Sequence record: MW650886.1
Direction: 5' to 3' (one strand)
DNA length: 64,000 nucleotides
From: Escherichia phage vB_EcoM-ZQ1
The notes below the pieces were generated by a model. That model was not told the origin of the DNA, ran no database searches, and was given only the letters and a program-made list of their open reading frames with translations. The translations under genes and the position numbers were made by a program. Below are positions 3,122 through 64,000 of this stretch, one piece after another (within the stretch, counting starts at the first letter, position 1; each line of letters begins with the position of its first letter).

Positions 3122-6100
3122 TCAGATCTTAATCTGCATGTTGCCACCCAGGGACTGCTCGTACTCGCTGTATGCGCCTTCCCCGTAGTCTCGTGCCCAC
3201 TGGTCAGACTGCTGGGCGCTATCCAGAGTCATCAGGTTTGGTTCAGTCGGGTTGTAACCCTTGGACTTCGCATCCCGGTACAGAGTCTGCAGGTACTGGT
3301 TGGCGCGGTCAATCTGAGCTTTGAACTCGCGATATGCCCCTTCAGTTGTGTTGCGGCGGAAGGTGATATCCCAGTCCACGTTCAGAGTCTGACCATCACG
3401 GCTTGCATAGATCTGCCAATCCAGGTCGCGGCCTTTTGGTGCGTTGTCGCGGATGGAGTCGGCGTATGCCGCAAGGTCGTCCTTCGGATTGTGCGACGTG
3501 CTTTTCAGAAGTAGTGCATGACCCATACCACCGTTTGGCTCAAGAGACCATTTTCCTGTTTCTCTTCCCAGGCGTTCTATGTTGTTGAGTTGGTTTATCG
3601 ACAATTCAGAAGAGTCAAATAATACCACATCACGTTTTTTGGGGGTTCTCACATAAGGGGTGAGATCAATGTCGATCATCCGGTTTATAAATTCTACCAC
3701 TTCAGCTTGTTTCTTTGGCAATGTGGTATTGATATCCGGCTTGTTTGCCACTTTCTCTAGGCGTTTATTTTCTGCGCTTATCATGGACAGCATAATTTGT
3801 GTAACTTTGCCGTCAGACAAGTTGTAATCATTCCAAATCACTTCACCTTTATCCGTGATGGTTATATCGTTCAAGAACACCTGGTTTGGGTTGTATGACT
3901 GACTTTTCAACTGTTGGAGGTTTCTGGAAAGATATACCATTTTTGATGAAATCTCATCAATCACACTCTGGACCATATCTTTGTTTAAAGGAAGTTCATA
4001 TGTCTTCGGATTGTTCAGGGTACGCCCTTTCTGAGAGACAATTGGGGTGAATGCAACTTTACCTTTGTCGTAGTAATAGGTCACGTTGGTTATCATAGAA
4101 GTACCGGCGTATTTTCCCGTTTCGGGGAAATTGACATCCCACCGAATGGACATGCCGTTGACAGTCTCACCAAACACCATGGCGTTGCTTGGTATCTTCA
4201 GGGTTCCAGAGTTGACCAGATCAGCGCCTTGGGCATTCAGGTCGATAGAACCATAGATAGCCCCGGTAATACGATCTTTCAACATCAGGGTCTTGTCGCC
4301 CTTCTCTGGGATGATTTCCAGCGGGTGCTTGCCACGCGGAGGTTCTTTGATGAGTTCCAGTAGAGCAGTTTTCCCTGGTTTCACACGATTCAGGACAGCG
4401 TCGGACACTGTCAGAGTCCAGTTTGCGGTTTCCACATAACCCCAGCCCCGAGAACGGCGAATGGCTTTGATAGGATATGGAGCGCTTGTTGGCACTGCGC
4501 TAATTTCCCATTTGCCAGTGTACTGGGTCTTGGCAACCTCAAAGATGGACGCAATTACTGCATTGGCGACGTCACGGGCGCTACCTTTGGCCACGTTCTC
4601 CTCTTCAGCAATTTCGCTGAAAACTGAGTATTGAACGAAACCAGCGAGGACGTTTGTGAAGTTGACAACGATAACCAACCCGCCTGCTGTCGTGTAACGA
4701 CCAGCGCCCACACGACGGATGTTTTCACCAGGAAGAATAGAAGTGTCCAACCCAACGTTGGTATCAATGATACCCAGAACACGAGCGATGAAACCACTGT
4801 CACGTAATTGATCAACACTGGTTGCACCCTCGGTCGAATCCGATGCGGATTTAGACACTTTGTTCAACTTGATAGAGACAAGGGTTTCCCCGTTGACACC
4901 GATGATATCCCATTCAGTACCCTGCTCGTTCGAGGTGCGGGCAATCTTGCGCTTTGAATTGATGGCACCTTCGTAACGCCCGTTCTTGACCACAACAGAG
5001 GCAGTAGCAGCATCAGTCGCACTTGCTGCATTTGAAAAGTCTGGGTCAGAAATACTGATGTCGACGTCACCGTTTTGAGAACGCATGCGAACACCGTTTT
5101 TGAATCGTTCAACGTTTACTTCTCGAGCACCAAGTCGTTTGGCATCAATAACAGCAGTTCCAGAACCGATAATGTTGGCTGGGTTATTTCTGTCTGAACT
5201 GTTTTGAGAACCTTTCCAAAATTTTGTAGACGCCATGGTGAAATCATTCAGGATATTGATAGGGACTTGCGGTAATTTCAACTGACGAGCAATGAAATCA
5301 GCACTTTGCCCACGCACAGGTTTCTCATTCATGTATGCGCCAACATACACGCCCGGCTCATTGTAGTGGGGAGCGATATTTGCCGTGTTCGTGCGGCCTC
5401 TCTCCTTACCAGCCCATAACAACATGGGCTGATCCCCGTTTGAAGTTAATTTCCATCCGTTGCCATTGCTGGTGTCATTGCTGGTGTCATTGCTGGTGTC
5501 AACGTCCACCACCAGAATTATCTGAGCACCTTTCTTGAAAGTGTACTGATCGTACATACCTTTCTTCTGTTTGGTCATGGACGCACCGACCAAGTCTTGG
5601 TTGGTGAAGCCGCGCTTCATATTCCAAGATACCTCAGTCCCGTCTGGATATTTGTCAAAATCATAACCATAGAATGTGGCTACTTCTTTCGAACCGCTTA
5701 TCAGACGGACGTAATTTCCACGAATCGGGTCTCGCCCGCTCTTCAACTCCAGACCAGTGTCCGAGCTGTTGTACCACTCGCGGTTGACTTCTATTTCAGA
5801 AGAACCAGCCCCAACTCCCACATCCGGAGTATTGTTCTGAACCGGAACGTCACCGACTTTGTCTGGATCATCCCAGGTGATACCCTGCATCTTCGGACCG
5901 TCGAATACCTGAGCCGGATCTTTACCCTTACGAACTAGCCACACATAACCACGGTCAGGAACAGGCGCGTAGGTCAGGTCCATGACGTTCAGTTTCTGCT
6001 TCAGGCCGGACTGGCGGATGATCTTAGGAATCAGGGTCATACCGCGATCCAGCGCTTTCTTAGAGAAGTTGACAGCAAAGCCATCGATGGTCTTACCCAG

Positions 6101-25181: not shown

Positions 25182-25344
25182 CGTTATTGCCTTCTTCAGG
25201 GTTGTCTTCGGCCTCACCTTCCGGCTTGGCCAGCATATATTCAAGGAAGTCGCGATTGAGTTCAATCTGACTCATCAGCGTTTCGCTCGGTTTAAAGCTG
25301 AGGTCGATGGTGTCTAGACCAGCTTTCTTGAATGGTTCTGTCAT
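25174..25344 (-). CDS. small acidic protein (56 aa), not in ORF track
   Basis: ORF whose stop overlaps vWA start (ATGATTGA). Confidence 0.3.
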   Translation of the reverse strand: MTEPFKKAGLDTIDLSFKPSETLMSQIELNRDFLEYMLAKPEGEAEDNPEEGNNDD

Positions 25345-25437
25345 GGTTAGTCGACCTTCACTTCAGTAACACCAGGTATTTCACGGACATGGGCCAGGCC
25401 TCTGTTTGTTAGTCATGGCGTATTATACTGCGAAGGG

Positions 25438-37833: not shown

Positions 37834-38562
37834 TTACTTCAGCGCGTTCTTCAGATTATCGGAACCGATGCTGTTGATGACACCTCCGGCGCAGATATCT
37901 TTCGCCCACTCTGAGATCACGTTGGCAAAAGAGAAGTTAAGACACTTACCAACCATGTCTTGGATATGGGCTAACTCTGCTGCAATACCGTTCGTGATGT
38001 CTTGAGCAATAGAGGCTACTGATGCGACAGCAGTGTCGATGGCTTGAGTAACTTCAGCAGCCAGTGCCCGAATAGCATCAAGACCAGCACTGACACCCTG
38101 AGCTACCAACTCAGCCAGCTCATTCATCTTGTTTGTGATAGTTGTGAGAACACTTTGCATGGTGTTGATCCACTGTTTGCCGAGGTTCTGAATAACCCCA
38201 AATGCATTATTGATCAGATCACAGTTGTTCGGTTCTCGACCTATAGACTTCAGGGCGGACTTATAAGACACAGATGTACCGATGCGGGAATATGCCTCGT
38301 TCACTGACTGGTCGCCATAGTTGTTCAAAGTAGTGATGCTGTTGTTGGCTGAGTTGAACATTGCTGTAGATTCGTTGAGTTTGGCTGTAGTCAACCCACC
38401 TGCCGTCAGCGCTTCCTGAATCTGCGCATTTCCGGTGTTAGCCAGTGACGCTGTAGTCGCCTTACCACTGGTGATTAACCCCTGTGAGGCGCTGCTGAGG
38501 GACGGGAGAGGATTGGTAAATGCGTTGCCCTGCGATAGGGCGTCATAGATCTGTGCGTTCAT
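37834..38562 (-). CDS. hypothetical protein (242 aa)
   Basis: internal ATG 38562 just downstream of terminator and CTAAATA motif. Confidence 0.5.
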   Translation of the reverse strand: MNAQIYDALSQGNAFTNPLPSLSSASQGLITSGKATTASLANTGNAQIQEALTAGGLTTAKLNESTAMFNSANNSITTLNNYGDQSVNEAYSRIGTSVSYKSALKSIGREPNNCDLINNAFGVIQNLGKQWINTMQSVLTTITNKMNELAELVAQGVSAGLDAIRALAAEVTQAIDTAVASVASIAQDITNGIAAELAHIQDMVGKCLNFSFANVISEWAKDICAGGVINSIGSDNLKNALK

Positions 38563-38566
38563 AAGA

Positions 38567-38595
38567 AAATACCCCCATGGATGATGGGGGTATTT
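38567..38595 (-). terminator. stem-loop terminator overlapping late-promoter-like motif
   Basis: 11-bp perfect stem aaataccccca / tgggggtattt, 7-nt loop, U-rich tail; CTAAATA in 3' arm. Confidence 0.55.
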
Positions 38596-38600
38596 AGGGA

Positions 38601-38810
38601 TCATGGTAGTTTGTAAACGAAGTTGGACCAGAACTTACGAACAAACTTCTTGACATAAACCATTCGGTTGGCGTATTCCCCATCCTTCAGGTCATTGTAG
38701 GTCTCGATCCCTACCGCGCCCAAGAAGTACGCCGTGAAGATATAGCAGAACAGATTGATGACGACAAACATGATGTATCTCCGCTGTGTGTTGAGTTTAA
38801 TAAATACCAT
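38601..38810 (-). CDS. small membrane protein (69 aa)
   Basis: hydrophobic helix FVVINLFCYIFTAYFLGAVGI. Confidence 0.4.
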   Translation of the reverse strand: MVFIKLNTQRRYIMFVVINLFCYIFTAYFLGAVGIETYNDLKDGEYANRMVYVKKFVRKFWSNFVYKLP

Positions 38811-38851
38811 ACAATGTTTTCCGCGAACCAGAAGCCGAACGGGTAGTCACA

Positions 38852-39235
38852 CTACAGGTGTCCCTCCGGAGCTTTCTTGCAACGGTTGATCATGTCCAGG
38901 GTGCCAGTGGACGAACCATCCCACATCGCAATCGGATACACTTCCAGCTTGGTCTGTCTGACGAGATCCAATGCCTTGTCTAACATGTCCTGATTGCGTT
39001 TGTTGCCCATCCCTTTCCCATACTTTTCATAATAGCTCGGAGGGATCGGCATGGGGGTGATATGAACATAATTGATTTCAGCCCAGTCACGGCAAATCTT
39101 GTCTACACCAGAGGCTTCACCCTCAATCAGTGTATAGACTTCATGAGGATCGAGGAGTTCGTCCAGCTTGGCGAATACCTTATCCCGCTCGGTGATTGAG
39201 CGGGAACCCGTAATGAGAACGATATACTTCTTCAT
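38852..39235 (-). CDS. SLOG / DUF2493-like Rossmann-fold protein
   Basis: MKKYIVLITGSRS ... GEASGVD pattern. Confidence 0.45.
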   Translation of the reverse strand: MKKYIVLITGSRSITERDKVFAKLDELLDPHEVYTLIEGEASGVDKICRDWAEINYVHITPMPIPPSYYEKYGKGMGNKRNQDMLDKALDLVRQTKLEVYPIAMWDGSSTGTLDMINRCKKAPEGHL

Positions 39236-39240
39236 AGAAC

Positions 39241-39585
39241 TCACAGCGCCCCAAGATTGCCGATTACGTACAGGGAGCACAGAGGAGTGCCTGACGAACG
39301 CGGTTCGATCGTCATCCCGCTCAGGCGGATCAGTTCCAGTAAGCCGTCAGTGGTCTGATACGCGCGTGTCGAGCCGTTCGGTCGATATAGCTCCAGCTCA
39401 GTTCGCCCTTCCTTTATTGCATTTCGAATGCGAGTGAACACGCTGTGGTCGCCGAACTTCTGTTTCAGAATATCCAGTTTGGTGGTCAGGCAGCGCGTTT
39501 TGCGTGGCTTGCGCTCACTCGGCTTTTCGAATTTGACGATGTGGGGGATCTCCACGGATTTGTTCAGTTTGGTGTCTGCTGCCAT
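39241..39585 (-). CDS. hypothetical protein (114 aa)
   Basis: ORF. Confidence 0.45.
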   Translation of the reverse strand: MAADTKLNKSVEIPHIVKFEKPSERKPRKTRCLTTKLDILKQKFGDHSVFTRIRNAIKEGRTELELYRPNGSTRAYQTTDGLLELIRLSGMTIEPRSSGTPLCSLYVIGNLGAL

Positions 39586-39644: not shown

Positions 39645-39926
39645 TTAGAACAAATGCTCGCCTTCCACATGGTATGCTAACACGCCGTCAGAACATTCAA
39701 AATACATGTTATCATATTCCCACAGAGCGGTGATTTCTTCACCCTGGCAAACCACCGAAAACTTCGGCTGGCTGGCCTTAACTGGAAATTTTTCAGGGGA
39801 AGAGATTGGGGTGAATTTGGCATTTCTGACGGCCATACCAACAAATTGCTGCAATGTTACTTTGTAACGAGAGTGGGTGATAGTGCCAGCATTCAGGGCT
39901 TCGATCAATTGCGCTTTAGTTGTCAT
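39645..39926 (-). CDS. hypothetical early protein (93 aa)
   Basis: conserved leader ...GGAACTATATC-ATG and early promoter. Confidence 0.5.
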   Translation of the reverse strand: MTTKAQLIEALNAGTITHSRYKVTLQQFVGMAVRNAKFTPISSPEKFPVKASQPKFSVVCQGEEITALWEYDNMYFECSDGVLAYHVEGEHLF

Positions 39927-39976
39927 GATATAGTTCCTTCATTTCAGAGTCAGTGTTGTGCTGCTTATGGAATGAA

Positions 39977-40009
39977 GTATACGGGGTTTATTGAAGAAGT
40001 AAACCCCGT
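39977..40009 (-). promoter_or_regulatory. T4-type early promoter within a 10-bp-stem hairpin (PeSL-like)
   Basis: TTTACT - 16 bp - TATACT; -35 lies in hairpin acggggttta / taaaccccgt. Confidence 0.5.
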
Positions 40010-41022: not shown

Positions 41023-42495
41023 TTAGTTCAAGACATATTTGATCAGTCCACAATTCCAAATCCTGACCAACCCGGCTTCGGTTGCTAACTGGCTTTCTGT
41101 TTTGCCTTCTACGTCATACCCCATGCGAGCAAATGAACCTTTTCTGAAACCGAATTTGTGCTCACGCATAAATGTGCCAGGCTTGTGATATTTGTAGTCT
41201 GGCTTCTGTACTTCCTCTTCTACGAATCCGTGGGATAGGTAAATGTTGGACAACCTGCTTACAACACACCTATCCCCAAAGGAATAGATTTTGGTGTCGG
41301 CAAATTTTCTTCTGAAGTGTGAAAGAAGTTTACTGAATGCCCCGTGGCAATCATTAGAGGCAAATCTGACTAATTCCAGGCCATCTTTCCTTTTAGTGAA
41401 TAGCATCACGGCTTGTATGACCTCACTCTTGTCAATTAACGACAAATGGTGGGTAGAAGAAACGGAACCTTGTATGTGGTGGTTGTCTAAAAACTCCCTC
41501 AAGCCGCTTATATTCCCCCAAACGACTTTGTGTTGGCGAGCATATGACGCAGGCGTTTTAATGCCAAGTTTAGCTTTCAGAAGAGATTTTACCACTTCCT
41601 GTTTCTCAACCCATTCATCTTCCCAGATGTGGACCAACTGGATACCCTGAGATTCACATATTTCAGTCTTTTCCAGGTGATAATGTTTCTCTTTAAAAAC
41701 TTCTGAATGCCAGTACAGGCCATTAAATTCAATCGCCAATTTGTGTTCAGGGCAATAGATATCCAGTTGTTTACCGGATAATATACTGTAATCAGAAACA
41801 GTGTTTACAACTCCCATTGAGGTGAGAAACTCGGATATTTCCTTTTCATAAGAAGATTTCTTGTTCCTGATAGAACCATTGCTGAACAACGCACGTTTTA
41901 GTATGTTCGAGTTTTTCATAGGGTTGTCAACACCATAACGTTCTTGTAACGTTGCCAACGCCTTCTCCCTCACACCAGGTAATTGTAGTGTGGAGCAGCT
42001 TCCGTATTTGGATATATTCGAAGTCTCTATGGCTTTCCGACCAATACCACCTTTACACATAGAAACCTGATAACATTCTTCAGAACAATATGTTCTGTAA
42101 TCTTTATTATTGATGTAAAAGTTGGTTTCCTTGGAACACACCGGGCATATTTTCACGGTTCTATTGTACATCCAAGCTGTGACTTTACAAGCCAAATCTT
42201 GTAGGGTGTTGTGGGCATTGGCGAACACTAAAAGGTCTACATTGATGTGCTTCATAAGCAGTTCAGATTTGCATTTTTGGATATCCAATTTGTTGTTCTT
42301 GGTAAACATATATTTGTAGAAAAATTGGCGATATGATTCCTCGTCAGACAATTCATTCACTGCTTCAAGGAAACCTTCCGGGAGGTTCTTTAGGGTGTTC
42401 GATGCGAAGGTCTTGCAAGCATCTGAACAAAATTTCTTATCTTTCCTGGATGCTTTGAACTGTTCATGGCAGACACTACAGATTACCTGATACAT
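41023..42495 (-). CDS. free-standing homing-endonuclease-like protein (Zn ribbons, YGV..PMK repeats, Vsr/DUF559-like nuclease domain)
   Basis: Cys clusters, repeated KYGVDNPMK-type modules, AIEFNGLYWH ... HIWEDEW C-terminal domain; paralog of 48475..50274. Confidence 0.6.
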   Translation of the reverse strand: MYQVICSVCHEQFKASRKDKKFCSDACKTFASNTLKNLPEGFLEAVNELSDEESYRQFFYKYMFTKNNKLDIQKCKSELLMKHINVDLLVFANAHNTLQDLACKVTAWMYNRTVKICPVCSKETNFYINNKDYRTYCSEECYQVSMCKGGIGRKAIETSNISKYGSCSTLQLPGVREKALATLQERYGVDNPMKNSNILKRALFSNGSIRNKKSSYEKEISEFLTSMGVVNTVSDYSILSGKQLDIYCPEHKLAIEFNGLYWHSEVFKEKHYHLEKTEICESQGIQLVHIWEDEWVEKQEVVKSLLKAKLGIKTPASYARQHKVVWGNISGLREFLDNHHIQGSVSSTHHLSLIDKSEVIQAVMLFTKRKDGLELVRFASNDCHGAFSKLLSHFRRKFADTKIYSFGDRCVVSRLSNIYLSHGFVEEEVQKPDYKYHKPGTFMREHKFGFRKGSFARMGYDVEGKTESQLATEAGLVRIWNCGLIKYVLN

Positions 42496-58983: not shown

Positions 58984-61900
58984 TTATGCCAGAGCAATCA
59001 AACGGAAATCTTTGAATGACGGCGGTGCTATGCGGTTGCCTCTGACCAGCAGGCGGATCTTCAGGCCAACGAAAGGATTGGTGCTCTCTACAGTCTTGTC
59101 ATACTCATATTCGAAGAATGTAGAACCGTCATTGACCAGAGGGGATGTCGGTGTCACAGTTTCCCATGCCACATTATCCATCTCCTGACCTGCGCGCAGC
59201 AGTTTAACCTGCACAGTCATTGAAGACTGAGAAGGTAGCATCGCGCCGAAGTATTGCTTCAGAGTGGTGCAAGGGTTATCGAATCCGATATCCTTGGTCA
59301 CATAGCTGAACACATCTTCAAACGGATCCACACCGTAGGTGTTGAAGATGATAGTGAAATCATCACCGTCGATCATTGGAGCCGTGTAGACATTACTCTC
59401 GTTGCGAGTCATGGTTGCACGAACCTGGAAGTCGCCCACCTGACGATAGATACCTTCCGTCGGCAGAGACACGTCCGTATCGGATTCGAACTCAACCCAA
59501 TCAGAGAATGAGTTGGAGGTCGCATCGCGATAGCGGTATTCCAGTTTCAACACAGATCCTTCTAGGGCTGAATTGGTGACGCTTGCGTAGAACATGTCTA
59601 CCAAGTAGTTGCCTAGGAAAGAAGCCGCTTCGCCACCAATCTGACCGTCGGAGTCGGCGTTGGAACTCAGAACGAATTTGAACGTCGTGAACGTCGCATC
59701 AGTCACAGTGTGTTGGGCGTTCAGCTGCTCAGGAGTGAAACCGCAACCACCCGTCAACCCAGAAAGAGTAACACTTTCACCCGCAGTCAGGCCATGCCCC
59801 GGAGCGTACACAGTAACAGTTGAAGAACCGTTGACACATTTCACGGTGTTCAGACCCAGAGGGCGGATCTTCGGACCGACTTTAGCATCGAAGGTCACGA
59901 TGTTTGAACCAGCGGAGAAGTTACAGCGATATACACGGAACTTCATATCGGCAGTCTGGTTTGGAGTCCAGGTCGTACCATTTGAAGATGTGAAGAACAC
60001 GCCAGTGTACGGCTGTTTGGCAATGAACTCGTTGGTCAGCAAGTTCTTCTTACCCATCTCTGCGATGTATGCGTTGTAGTCCTGAGTGTTGGCCAAGAGA
60101 ACAATCGCGAACTCAGTCTGCGCCTGCAGATACACAGGATAATCAAACTTGAACATCGTTGGCACAGAAGAGTCTGTGGAGGTGGAAACTTCTGATGGAT
60201 TCAGAGTCTTACGAGTGACGACAGTCGTCGCTGGCAGACCATTGCTCATCTCACGGATTTCCAGAGTGATCGGGATATCACGGGACTTGGTGGAGAAGAA
60301 GACTTCAATCCCTTCGATGTATTCGCCGCCGATATTGGTGGCAACCATGAAGGACTGGGCGATAGGATCTTTCCACTTCGCGACTTCAACCGTCTCTGTT
60401 TTGTTTTCCGTAGACTTGGTCGCAGTGTATCCCAGGACGCGGGTGTTGACATAAGTCTTCTGGATGCCCTGTTTCTTTCCGAAGGACTTATGAACAGCCT
60501 CGGCATTGGTCAGGGTATCATCAGCAGACTTACTGTCCACAGGACTGTCAGTCAGACGGAAGACGTTGTCACCCGTGTTAAACTTGATAGTCTCGTTCTG
60601 AGGAACCGCAAACACACCTTTGATGTTACCGTTGGCATCAGTGTTCAACGCACCACCCAGTACACCACCGTTTGGGGTACAGTACGCGCTCACATCACGC
60701 CCAGAGAAGAACGGATACACACGAGTGAACGGACGCAGCCCTGTGGCTTCGAAGTTGATGTTCGTTTTGCGCATGTATGGGATAACCTGCGTTTCAACGA
60801 TCTGCTCGCCAGTCAGGGTAGTGGTCGTCTTGTCGGTGTACGTGTACGTGGTGACGTCACGGGTAGACACAGTCGTGCGGTAGCGATAGCCCCACCATAC
60901 ACCACCTGCACCATGCGGTTCCCACACACGCTCAGACACGGACACAGTACGCCATGTGCCATACACAGAACCTTCTTTGATCGCACCACGGGTGTTGATC
61001 GTTTCGTTGATCACCCGTGGAGTAACATAGTAGTTCTCAAACCAGTAATCAGTAGTTGGGTTCAGCTTCAAGAAACCTTCCCAGTTGAACACCGCATACG
61101 GGTTCACGTTGATGGTCGTGGTTGCATAGTCCTGGCGGACAGAGATCTCACGGGTGTAGTTGCATACAACCATGCCATCCTGAACGTTGTTCCAACCGAC
61201 TGGCGTCAGGTCAATCGCGTTCTGCTGAACAAACGGGCGTAGGCGACCATTGTCGGTGTCGATTGAACCCACCCAGTCTGCAGACAAATCGTCGATCAGA
61301 CGGAAGTCTTTGAACGGGTCTGCTGCGATACCGTTCTTGAAGCGCGGGTTGCCAGTAATTGGATCGAACACCTGTTGTGACATCGCCGAGGATTCCAGCT
61401 GAGACAGTGAGGTGTAATATTCGACATTCGAGATACGGGTCTCCAGTTTACCGATATCACGCATCGTGTAGCGGCGGTTGTCGATAGTACGAATCTGGAT
61501 GTCGTCAATGTTGGCCGTGTATGGTGGGATCATCAATTCATACAGACGCATACCGTTGTCTGGGATCGCAGGGGAAGCCAGGTTGTTGGAACTCACACCA
61601 CGAGCAACGTTGAACACACCGTTGTCTGCCAGATACACAGCATCAATACGAGGCAGATAGTACTCTGCATCTAGGATGATCGCGGTGTTCGGGCGAACCA
61701 TGTCCGTGTCAGACGCTCCGCTGGTGATCTTGGGACGGAAGTCCAGACTGTCGGCCAACCCATACACAGTACCAGAACTGGATGAAACATAGTTCGGGAT
61801 GTCTGGGTAGTTGATGGACGAATAGGAGTCCGCTGTAAAGAAATCACCAGAGCTGTGAGCGAAATACTGATACACCACCGTGAACGTCCCTGAAATGGCT

Positions 61901-63259
61901 CCTGTGGACGATATGAGGTTAGAAAGGTAGTATGCAGCATCACGCTGACCGCCGTCCAGAGTGAAGTTAGAGGTGACGTCAGCGCCATTTGCGTTCTTCA
62001 CGCTGATCAGCTTGTAACCATCATGGTTCCCAAGTTGTGCGCTGGCCGCCGCAGTAAACGTCACAGTCTCGGTGGCTTCGGTAACAGTCTTGGTCTTGAT
62101 CGTCGCTGTGGTGCGGACCATCAATGCCAACAGGTTGATAGACTGGTTGGCGTACCCCGCGCCCAGGGAAATCTGCAGTGCTGAACCAACCGGAGTACCA
62201 GCCAGGGACAGTCCCGAAGAGATATCAAACTGAGCTGCAGTGCCATCTGCCTTCGCTGCGGAGTACAGTGAAAACTCAGGGCTGAAGCTGTAACCCAGAG
62301 GAGCGGAGATTGAGCCTGCACCAGCGGCGTTCAACGTGATCTTGTTTGACCGCAGGACGGTGTAGTTGATGTCGATGGTGCCTGTAGGTGCTAGGGTCTT
62401 CACACCAAATACAGGCAGAGGGAAGATCAGGTCAATTGCTGAACTCTGGCTGAACTGATTGGACTCCAGTTCGCAGGAGAACATCGTTGTACCGCTTTCT
62501 TCATAAGCGACTTTGGTCACCGTACCCATGTCCCCAGTCACAACCAGGTCGCGCATATACAGACGGAATTCAGTACCGGAGCGCTCTGCCGAAATCAGCA
62601 GGGCGGTGGCCTGCACATCGCTGGATGCGTTCAGGAACTTGTAGCGGATTGTGCGGGAGACAACCGGAACCCCTTTGGAGTTCTTGGACACCAGATAGTT
62701 GCCAGTCGAAACAGCCACAGGGTTGTTGTTCAGGATATCAGTGTCACGGGCTTTGTCAATTATGACCAGCTCTTCGCCGAGGTTTTCGATACGACGACCA
62801 CGAACGTAGGATATCCCTGGCTTCATAACCGCCACGAATTTGCTTTCATCACCACCTTCAGCCGGAGTGTAAACGCCGCCGTTGTTGTTCTGTTTCAGAT
62901 GTTCGCGCAGGTCGATCTGGTGAGTAGAGACGTTGTAGATGTTCACGCAGGTCGATCTGGTGAGTAGAGACGTTGTAATCCCCGTTGGTCTCATAAGTGC
63001 GCTGCGCCATACTGTCTTCGAGGATGTTGTAGGTGGACTGGGTCACCATGGACTGAATGCGACCGTCTTTCACCTTCGCCAGTTCAACGAAGTCGGCCAC
63101 TTCTTCATCATAACCGTAGCGAGACAACACGAGGTCGACGCGCAGGCGATGCGCACCAGGGGCTTTAGAGTTCGGAGTACCCTGAGCATTGGAGAACAGA
63201 CTTTCATCTTCTGCTTCGGTTCGTCGGAGTTGTAGGTCCTTGTATGGCGCCTGCTTCAT
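58984..63259 (-). pseudogene. large virion structural gene (tail fibre/baseplate-like, ~1411 aa if intact) split by a frameshifting 40-bp tandem duplication
   Basis: ORFs 62858..63259 and 58984..62994 overlap in different frames; both encode YNVSTHQIDLREHL across the duplicated 40-mer. Confidence 0.6.
62898..62977 (-). repeat. 40-bp tandem duplication, 1 mismatch
   Basis: gatgttcgcgcaggtcgatctggtgagtagagacgttgta followed by the same with g to a at position 8. Confidence 0.85.
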
Positions 63260-63329
63260 TTGCGGAAACCAGTACGCGCGTTGTTATCTAGGTGGGCTGT
63301 CATCGTCGTCGGTGTGGTATCGGCTGTGC

Positions 63330-63794
63330 TTACTTTAATAGCAAGTGCAGCATCCACAACTTCATGTCCAACAGTCCAGCTTCGAAACCGTCTGAACTAC
63401 CACTCTCAGTCATCTCTAAGATGGCATACATTGTATCCGGCTCAGCTGGATAACGTTCCAAAGACAGGACGCGTGCTTTCGCATTGTTGTCCTTGCCCAG
63501 AACATAGAGTTCGGAGATACCTTCCAGATCAGTGAACTCACTACCACCAGCCAGAGTGAACTTCATGGACACAGCAGTATTGGTGATCGTCAGGCCGCCG
63601 GGGATAACCATTGAACCGTCTTTGAACAGATGGTTGCCAAGTTTCTCCAGTTGATCCTGGAAGATGGTCTGCATCTGGTTCAGTTCACGCGTCTGAACTT
63701 TGATAGGTGCCGGACGGAATAGAATGCGCGAAAAACGCTTCTCTGGATTCCAGTCATCCCAATATGGGCGGCGGTTGAGGTTCATTTCTTGCAT
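63330..63794 (-). CDS. hypothetical virion-module protein (154 aa)
   Basis: internal ATG 63794 with GGAG RBS and upstream CTAAATA motif. Confidence 0.45.
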   Translation of the reverse strand: MQEMNLNRRPYWDDWNPEKRFSRILFRPAPIKVQTRELNQMQTIFQDQLEKLGNHLFKDGSMVIPGGLTITNTAVSMKFTLAGGSEFTDLEGISELYVLGKDNNAKARVLSLERYPAEPDTMYAILEMTESGSSDGFEAGLLDMKLWMLHLLLK

Positions 63795-63828
63795 TTTGAT
63801 GCTCCATCGATAGGTGCCATTATAGAGA

Positions 63829-63835
63829 TATTTAG
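63829..63835 (-). promoter_or_regulatory. late-promoter-like motif CTAAATA
   Basis: TACTAAATATC ~35 bp upstream of ATG 63794. Confidence 0.4.
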
Positions 63836-64000
63836 TATACAACCAACCGAGGAATAGAAAGAAATAAGCCCGAAGGGGCTTTGATTATCTTTCTGCGGTT
63901 ATGGTCATGGATTCTAGACCTCCGCATTCTTCAGGAACTATCGCAGGTAGTGCTGGTACAGCCAAGGAATAGAGAACACAAACAAGACGAACCAATGGAA

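Follow-up and report, generated by a model that had tools for sequence, protein, structure and literature searches.

YAcAr proteins (Pfam PF10686, 'YAcAr: YspA, cpYpsA-related SLOG family', formerly DUF2493) were reportedly defined by Burroughs et al. (NAR, 2015), and their assignment to the SLOG superfamily is said to come from the Aravind group. In this study, a YAcAr gene (hereafter the SLOG gene) was analysed in a 64,000-nucleotide (nt) stretch of Escherichia phage vB_EcoM-ZQ1 (record MW650886.1; the whole stretch is called the window). We found that its product is, with near certainty, the Ackermannviridae orthologue of YAcAr, a minimal stand-alone SLOG Rossmannoid of the YpsA/DprA-like clade. 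Its ligand, we tentatively propose, is a free phosphoribosyl nucleotide, which the protein would bind, and probably also process, early in infection.

The Aravind group's prediction of 2021-2022 is that SLOG domains in viruses, for the most part members of the YpsA-like clade, use nicotinamide adenine dinucleotide (NAD+) or act on ADP-ribose derivatives, and that they degrade or sense immune signals of the cyclic ADP-ribose (cADPR) type, degradation being favoured over sequestration (PMC9503650). Fusions of viral SLOG domains to Macro, NADAR and DUF4326 and, sporadically, to helicase, HNH and exonuclease domains were described in the same work, where the proposed roles were called experimentally uncharacterised (PMC9503650).

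Among the closest described proteins, YpsA of Bacillus subtilis (2nx2), the founder of the YpsA-like clade and a cellular protein tied to cell division and oxidative stress, is only 16% identical to the window protein and belongs to another Pfam family (DUF1273). DprA/Smf and ShosA, the latter a DprA-like SLOG protein which is the antitoxin of the ShosTA defence system and binds single-stranded DNA (ssDNA) and RecA, have 215-350 amino acids (aa), extra domains, a basic DNA-binding patch and a RecA interaction, whereas the window protein has 140 aa and an acidic core. The SLOG domain of ThsA (7uxs, 3'cADPR-bound) belongs to a host sensor fused to an effector (SIR2 or other), while the window protein is stand-alone, carries no effector, shares 16% identity, has no match among the PADLOC models and resembles ThsA in fold at the superfamily level only. 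The LOG enzymes ('Lonely guy' cytokinin riboside 5'-monophosphate phosphoribohydrolases) have the same superfamily and topology, an arginine in the helix after strand 3 and an equivalent glycine-rich G-T loop; their Pfam model (PF03641) was not matched by the window protein. Compared with the YAcAr family itself, the window protein has the same size, the same stand-alone architecture and all invariant residues, and differs by a clade-specific invariant tail (LMGKPKTKRLL) and by a methionine in place of the usual alanine at position 76.

As the window reads, the open reading frame (ORF) runs on the minus strand from an ATG at 39235 to a TAG at 38852 and encodes 127 aa ending in ...KKAPEGHL. It carries MKKYIVLITGSRS at the N-terminus and GEASGVD within, exactly as quoted in the initial annotation, which gave no strand. 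An alternative GTG start 45 nt upstream of the ATG would overlap the preceding gene, and the methionine of MKK is the start in most orthologues. PF10686 matched the 127-aa form with 43.5 bits (E = 2.8e-11) and the 140-aa form, obtained when a complemented stretch at the end of the gene is undone (see below), with 43.2 bits, both exceeding the curated gathering threshold of 28.2 bits. Relaxing the threshold to E ≤ 10 brought up no other Pfam model, PADLOC gave zero matches, and NCBIfam gave a chance match only (E = 0.19, 9.8 bits versus a cut-off of 942); phrog_289 was matched at E = 1.8e-36. The SLOG/DUF2493 resemblance and the stand-alone architecture proposed by the initial annotation were therefore borne out, with fold prediction and motifs in agreement and no additional domain in the protein. 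Its family call is correct; both the family and the hypothesis that viral SLOG domains deal with immune signals are already known, and orthologues of 94-100% identity are already public, some of them labelled YspA or DUF2493.

Conservation was scored across 131 diverse YAcAr members. G10, G39, G43, D45 and R80 were invariant in this alignment, and R12, A41, A76, G77, N81, M84, S109, G111 and T112 were conserved at 90% or more. The corresponding motifs GSR, GxAxGxD, AGxxRNxxM and SxGT occupy the loops after strands 1 to 4 (Table 1), and the window protein holds all family residues of these four loops except for M76 in place of A76. The invariant G43-V-D45 after strand 2 represents GxD/E, the substrate-binding signature of YpsA-like SLOG proteins; in DprA, the aligned counterparts of GSR and GxD are GTRR/GSR and GVD/GID. 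Within Ackermannviridae the WDGSSTGT loop is invariant, and dN/dS (the ratio of nonsynonymous to synonymous substitution rates) against four orthologues was 0-0.09, which indicates strong purifying selection. The restored residues 130-140 (38813..38845 after correction) form a tail, L-x-G-x-PKTKRL(L/I), which is invariant in all Ackermannviridae orthologues and absent from the wider YAcAr family. This basic tail is predicted to be disordered (predicted local distance difference test, pLDDT, ~60) and, as modelled, looks like a docking peptide or a DNA-binding tail; we know of no described motif that matches it.

The AlphaFold2 model, built with the same 131-sequence alignment (pLDDT 94.3, predicted template modelling score 0.87), is a three-layer alpha/beta Rossmannoid with a parallel five-stranded sheet, as expected for the SLOG superfamily of the TIR-DrHyd-SLOG clade; strand 3 leads into a long helix, and the tail is modelled at low confidence. 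SLOG structures were its nearest matches: YpsA (2nx2, score 11.7), TM1055 (1rcu, 10.9), the TRPM2 N-terminal domain (8sr7, 10.7), ShosA (8zva, 10.7), DprA (3maj, 10.5), the ThsA SLOG domain with 3'cADPR (7uxs, 10.3), the Moco carrier protein (2iz5, 9.8) and several LOG enzymes (9-10), with CARF and nucleoside deoxyribosyltransferase folds ranking lower. In a viral structure library, the closest models were named DUF2493, YspA-like SLOG, 'Mycobacteriophage D29 Gp61' and DprA-like.

The phage belongs to the Ackermannviridae (Aglimvirinae, Agtrevirus-like). Over 24 kb, the window shares 96-98% identity with Escherichia phages LHE287, A221, YX22 and AV101 and Salmonella phage vB_CECAV_050; with the Dickeya Limestoneviruses it shares ~85-87%. 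At least 265 phage records contain the SLOG gene at ≥60% identity, with 294 records DNA-related to the region, and the gene behaves as a near-universal core gene of Ackermannviridae. The initial annotation had placed it among small accessory genes; the neighbours are indeed of small size and lack annotation, but the majority are conserved throughout Ackermannviridae. A single query matched 714 of the 50,697 phage records, and in a set of 1.84 billion proteins a profile of the Ackermannviridae orthologues found 15,367 cluster representatives (50% identity) at E ≤ 1e-3; of the 150 best representatives, nearly all were stand-alone proteins of 112-147 aa. Among the 120 homologues listed in a second search, one was fused to DUF4326 and one to PF18974. 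The family is thus huge, and its Ackermannviridae members are core to phages in wide use for therapy and biocontrol against Salmonella, E. coli O157, Dickeya and Klebsiella.

For the function, we favour, at somewhat less than an even chance, the binding and probable processing of a free phosphoribosyl nucleotide during early infection. The GSR, GxAxGxD, AGxxRN and SxGT loops would form one pocket which, by analogy with other SLOG proteins, would hold the phosphate and ribose of a nucleotide; candidate ligands are ADP-ribose or an NAD-derived molecule, or a (deoxy)nucleoside monophosphate. The role of the protein, alongside nucleotide and DNA metabolism, would be enzymatic or sensory and not that of a stoichiometric soak for a signal, and the Ackermannviridae-specific tail (KPKTKRLL) would probably tether the protein to a partner protein or to DNA. 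A phosphoribosyl nucleotide is suggested as the ligand because most SLOG families handle small ligands, because the core is slightly acidic (isoelectric point, pI, 6.1), because invariant polar residues stand at the active-site positions of the clade, and because links to NADAR, DUF4326, phosphoribosyltransferase and ThyX occur. The pI of the whole family was also considered as a discriminator between DNA binding and small-ligand binding and was dropped, as the mixed values (median 8.6, 24% below 6.5) were uninformative.

Several observations weigh against a phosphoribosyl-nucleotide ligand. In place of the LOG catalytic motif PGGxGTxxE the window protein reads DGSSTGTLDM, which gives no ground for assuming catalysis of the LOG type. 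Within Ackermannviridae, the SLOG gene was not seen beside Macro, NADAR or Nudix genes, no experimental paper on any YAcAr/DUF2493 protein was found in the literature, and no solved structure of any YAcAr member was found. The nearest solved protein by sequence profile is DprA (a weak match, E ~0.007), which binds ssDNA, and 11 of the 120 listed homologues also match the DprA Pfam model. Replication or recombination genes, or fusions to helicases, make up about half of 16 YAcAr gene contexts sampled by hand, and would suit a DNA-directed role just as well.

In these contexts, the YAcAr gene lies between both DNA polymerase genes with overlapping ends (Vibrio phage CA8), follows the DNA polymerase gene (Klebsiella phage KpTDp1) or DnaB and primase (Bacillus phage pW4), adjoins a Dda-like helicase (Vibrio phage ValKK3) or SSB (metagenomic contig L017), or is found near an ERF recombinase (metagenomic contig L009), and in ICP1 HelB the domain is fused to an SF1B helicase. 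The gene also adjoins ThyX (metagenomic contig L018), stands behind DNA methyltransferases (loci L019-L021), or is part of a 552-aa protein which itself follows a Mu-type portal (locus L010); in Pseudomonas IME307, CAjan, JustBecause and the window it lies among small unannotated genes, with DnaC five genes upstream in IME307. On a 91-kb viral contig (L016, 3579..4393), a NADAR gene overlaps the start of the YAcAr gene, and a 264-aa protein (P0232) is a fusion of YAcAr and DUF4326; the overlap and the fusion agree with the connection to ADP-ribose processing that has been published for viral SLOG domains. In Mycobacterium phage Groundhog (L006, 3248..4363), a phosphoribosyltransferase gene lies directly upstream of the YAcAr gene, close to DnaB. 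By analogy, this pair echoes ShosT (phosphoribosyltransferase)-ShosA (DprA-like) and the bacterial phosphoribosyltransferase-YpsA pairs, and could be a phage module of toxin-antitoxin type or one that counters ShosTA.

The main rival is that the protein is a DprA-like accessory of replication or recombination whose pocket grips the nucleotides of ssDNA, possibly of damaged or ADP-ribosylated DNA. The sequence affinity to DprA, the replication-module neighbours with the helicase fusion, and the basic tail all speak for this possibility, which we nevertheless consider unlikely; the same holds for its corollary that the tail helps to bind DNA or a replisome or recombinase partner. The window protein has no hit to PF02481 (DNA_processg_A) up to E = 10, lacks the additional domains seen in DprA and ShosA, and matches DprA chains only weakly, as given above. 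Moreover, the core is slightly acidic, small molecules are the ligands of most SLOG families, and the tally of neighbours is biased, since replication and recombination genes are the early genes that are easiest to recognise and annotate.

It is improbable, in our judgement, that YAcAr constitutes a very large and so far unrecognised family of phage counter-defence enzymes in which the SLOG pocket cleaves the ribosyl-base bond of ADP-ribose-based immune products. Thoeris-type cADPR isomers are possible targets, as are the ADP-ribose adducts that DarT-type toxins place on phage ssDNA; a DarT adduct as target would explain the NADAR, Macro and DUF4326 associations together with the replication-module and helicase associations, and the invariant basic tail of the Ackermannviridae proteins would then dock the enzyme at the replication fork. 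The identity of the ligand would settle the published prediction that viral SLOG domains disarm ADP-ribose-based immunity, and could bring to light an enzyme class or a replisome accessory that is new to phage biology.

The initial annotation had named the protein as a candidate binder or sponge for signalling nucleotides of the host. A non-catalytic sponge of a host immune nucleotide, such as the glycocyclic ADP-ribose (gcADPR) of Thoeris or the signals of CBASS or Pycsar, we regard as distinctly improbable. The protein is small, stand-alone and probably early, its fold is common to the ThsA SLOG domain that binds 3'cADPR, and viral SLOG domains were proposed to sense or counter signals derived from ADP-ribose (PMC9503650). 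However, that same prediction prefers degradation to sequestration, and a 2026 paper that lists seven sponge families (Tad1, Tad2, Acb2, Acb4, sequestin, lockin and TadIV-1) describes none of them as SLOG (PMC13243611); the comparison with known sponges was made by this published list and not by family sequences, the Pfam scan of the window protein giving PF10686 alone. The lack of a PADLOC match argues against a close relation to the ThsA sensor models, and the closest solved sequence match is DprA. In addition, the gene is near-universal and tightly constrained, unlike the patchy genes typical of anti-defence, most sampled neighbours are genes of replication or nucleotide metabolism, and homologues are also fused to helicases.

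The length of the protein depends on how the end of the gene is read. Over ~78 nt the window departs abruptly from its relatives, with unchanged flanks on both sides (Table 1). Against vB_CECAV_050 the complement of this stretch matches at 73 of 78 positions and the direct reading at 1 of 78, the length is the same and the flanks are identical; the complement relation also holds against YX22, LHE287 and Dickeya phage LIMEstone1. The window's version of the stretch was found in none of the 50,697 phage genome records. When the 78 bases are complemented back, a 140-aa protein is obtained. Orthologues have 140 aa in the closest relatives and 138-155 aa in related subgroups; all complete Ackermannviridae orthologues end in ...GKPKTKRL(L/I), the closest reading ...KK(A/T)GLPVDITLMGKPKTKRLL. 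Since DNA strands are antiparallel, neither inversion nor recombination can yield an in-place complement. The stretch, which occurs in no other record and can be restored to a normal gene end, is therefore treated as sequence corruption, the stop at 38852 is not genuine, and the 140-aa reading is taken as the true gene. Where the LIMEstone1 annotation places a late promoter, the window has this altered stretch, and a false upstream ATG arising from it extends the next small ORF to 69 aa (56 aa in relatives).

A second in-place complemented stretch (63228..63374, 147 nt) is 84% identical to the complement of LHE287 and lies within a large VriC-like gene, which encodes 1612 aa in LHE287 and is split here into ORFs of 1336 aa and 170 aa; users of the window sequence should know of both corrupted stretches. 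That the 127-aa form, the literal reading of the window sequence, is a genuine truncated copy decaying in this phage is effectively excluded: no biological process produces an exact positional complement of equal length with perfect flanks, a like stretch splits another conserved gene, and the premature stop would cost the sheet its final beta-strand (model residues 127-130) though dN/dS of the gene is otherwise <0.1.

The weakest reading, that of a GTP-binding protein, as many database records have it ('GTP-binding domain' or 'putative GTP-binding protein' in CBA120, its many descendants and phrog_289), can be dismissed, because the window protein has neither a Walker A (GxxxxGK[ST]) nor an NKxD motif, matches no P-loop or GTPase family in Pfam or NCBIfam, and is predicted to fold as SLOG and not as a P-loop nucleoside triphosphatase, and because the phrog_289 profile is a chimera. 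The 500 columns of phrog_289 'GTP-binding domain' hold SLOG at 20-131 and a DUF7217 virion protein at 250-500, by which the DUF7217 protein of vB_CECAV_050 has come to be mislabelled 'GTP-binding domain-containing protein'. The chimera was probably seeded by a 475-aa annotation in Salmonella phage 38 (A0A0N7CDB8). A true SLOG-DUF7217 fusion was considered and rejected: all 31 of 31 DUF7217 homologues have ~242 aa and match PF23854 only, and late promoters are annotated between the two genes in LIMEstone1. With no Walker A or NKxD motif, the label that is spreading through phage annotations is unfounded.

Table 1. Coordinates of the SLOG gene, its motifs and other features in the window (positions of the whole stretch)
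Feature	Coordinates	Strand	Remarks
127-aa ORF as in window	38852..39235	-	YAcAr/SLOG domain; C-terminus artefactually altered
Inferred true gene, 140 aa, after the complemented stretch is undone	38813..39235	-	Ends exactly ...KKAGLPVDITLMGKPKTKRLL followed by the stop, as in the closest 140-aa orthologues
GSRS loop after strand 1	39197..39208	-	G10 invariant, R12 nearly; aligns with DprA GTRR/GSR
GEASGVD (GxAxGxD)	39101..39121	-	G39, G43, D45 invariant; GxD/E signature of YpsA-like clade
MGNKRNQDM (AGxxRNxxM), start of long helix after strand 3	38984..39010	-	R80 invariant; N81, M84 nearly
STGT (SxGT), glycine-rich loop after strand 4	38900..38911	-	S109, G111, T112 nearly invariant; counterpart of LOG GGxGT
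78-nt stretch, complement without reversal of the relatives' sequence	38792..38869	.	Positional comparison with relatives
Upstream co-oriented ORF, 114 aa, phrog_4663	39241..39585	-	Stop 5 nt before SLOG ATG
First ORF of putative early unit, 93 aa, phrog_10263	39645..39926	-	Directly downstream of putative early promoter
Sigma-70-like promoter, TTTACT-16-TATACT	39976..40003	-	Position equivalent to 'putative early promoter' of LIMEstone1
DUF7217 gene	37834..38604	-	Second half of chimeric phrog_289
Fragments of split VriC-like gene	58984..62994 and 63330..63842		Comparison with LHE287

All neighbours of the SLOG gene but one are on the minus strand. Downstream lie a small membrane ORF, the DUF7217 protein (a confirmed virion component in LIMEstone1), a DUF7424 ORF (the plus-strand exception), a tail-completion protein, UvsY, an exonuclease and UvsW. 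The upstream side holds five small ORFs without assigned function, a homing endonuclease and the major capsid gene. The 114-aa ORF and the SLOG gene are probably co-transcribed and translationally coupled, judging from the sequence, because only 5 nt separate the stop of the former from the start of the latter. In the annotation of LIMEstone1, a putative early promoter stands upstream of ORF133-ORF132-ORF131, of which ORF131 is the SLOG gene, and late promoters are annotated only after it. Because of this promoter annotation and the equivalent sigma-70-like site in the window, the SLOG gene probably closes a short early unit and is expressed apart from the virion protein. vB_CECAV_050 and LIMEstone1 have the phrog_10263 ORF, LHE287 and YX22 lack it, and it is therefore a variable cassette heading the transcription unit of the SLOG gene.

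Between this gene block and the major capsid gene lies a 490-aa homing-endonuclease-like ORF (41023..42495, minus strand), the equivalent of F-LimVII of LIMEstone1, and the homing-endonuclease content near this site varies among relatives. LHE287 carries genes for nicotinamide phosphoribosyltransferase and ribose-phosphate pyrophosphokinase, an NAD+ reconstitution pair (L003, 8325..11176), where the window has only ~230 nt at the equivalent site (25185..25419) and no such pair; a link between the SLOG gene and NAD+ salvage genes was rejected, the pair of LHE287 being ~14 kb away and absent from the window. Beside the second complemented stretch, block 62937..63217 aligns with a 42-nt overlap to the preceding block. 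Within a large function-unassigned gene, two adjacent blocks (5205..5462 and 5468..5829) stand in exchanged order in the alignment to LHE287, which could reflect a rearrangement or repeat-driven variation.
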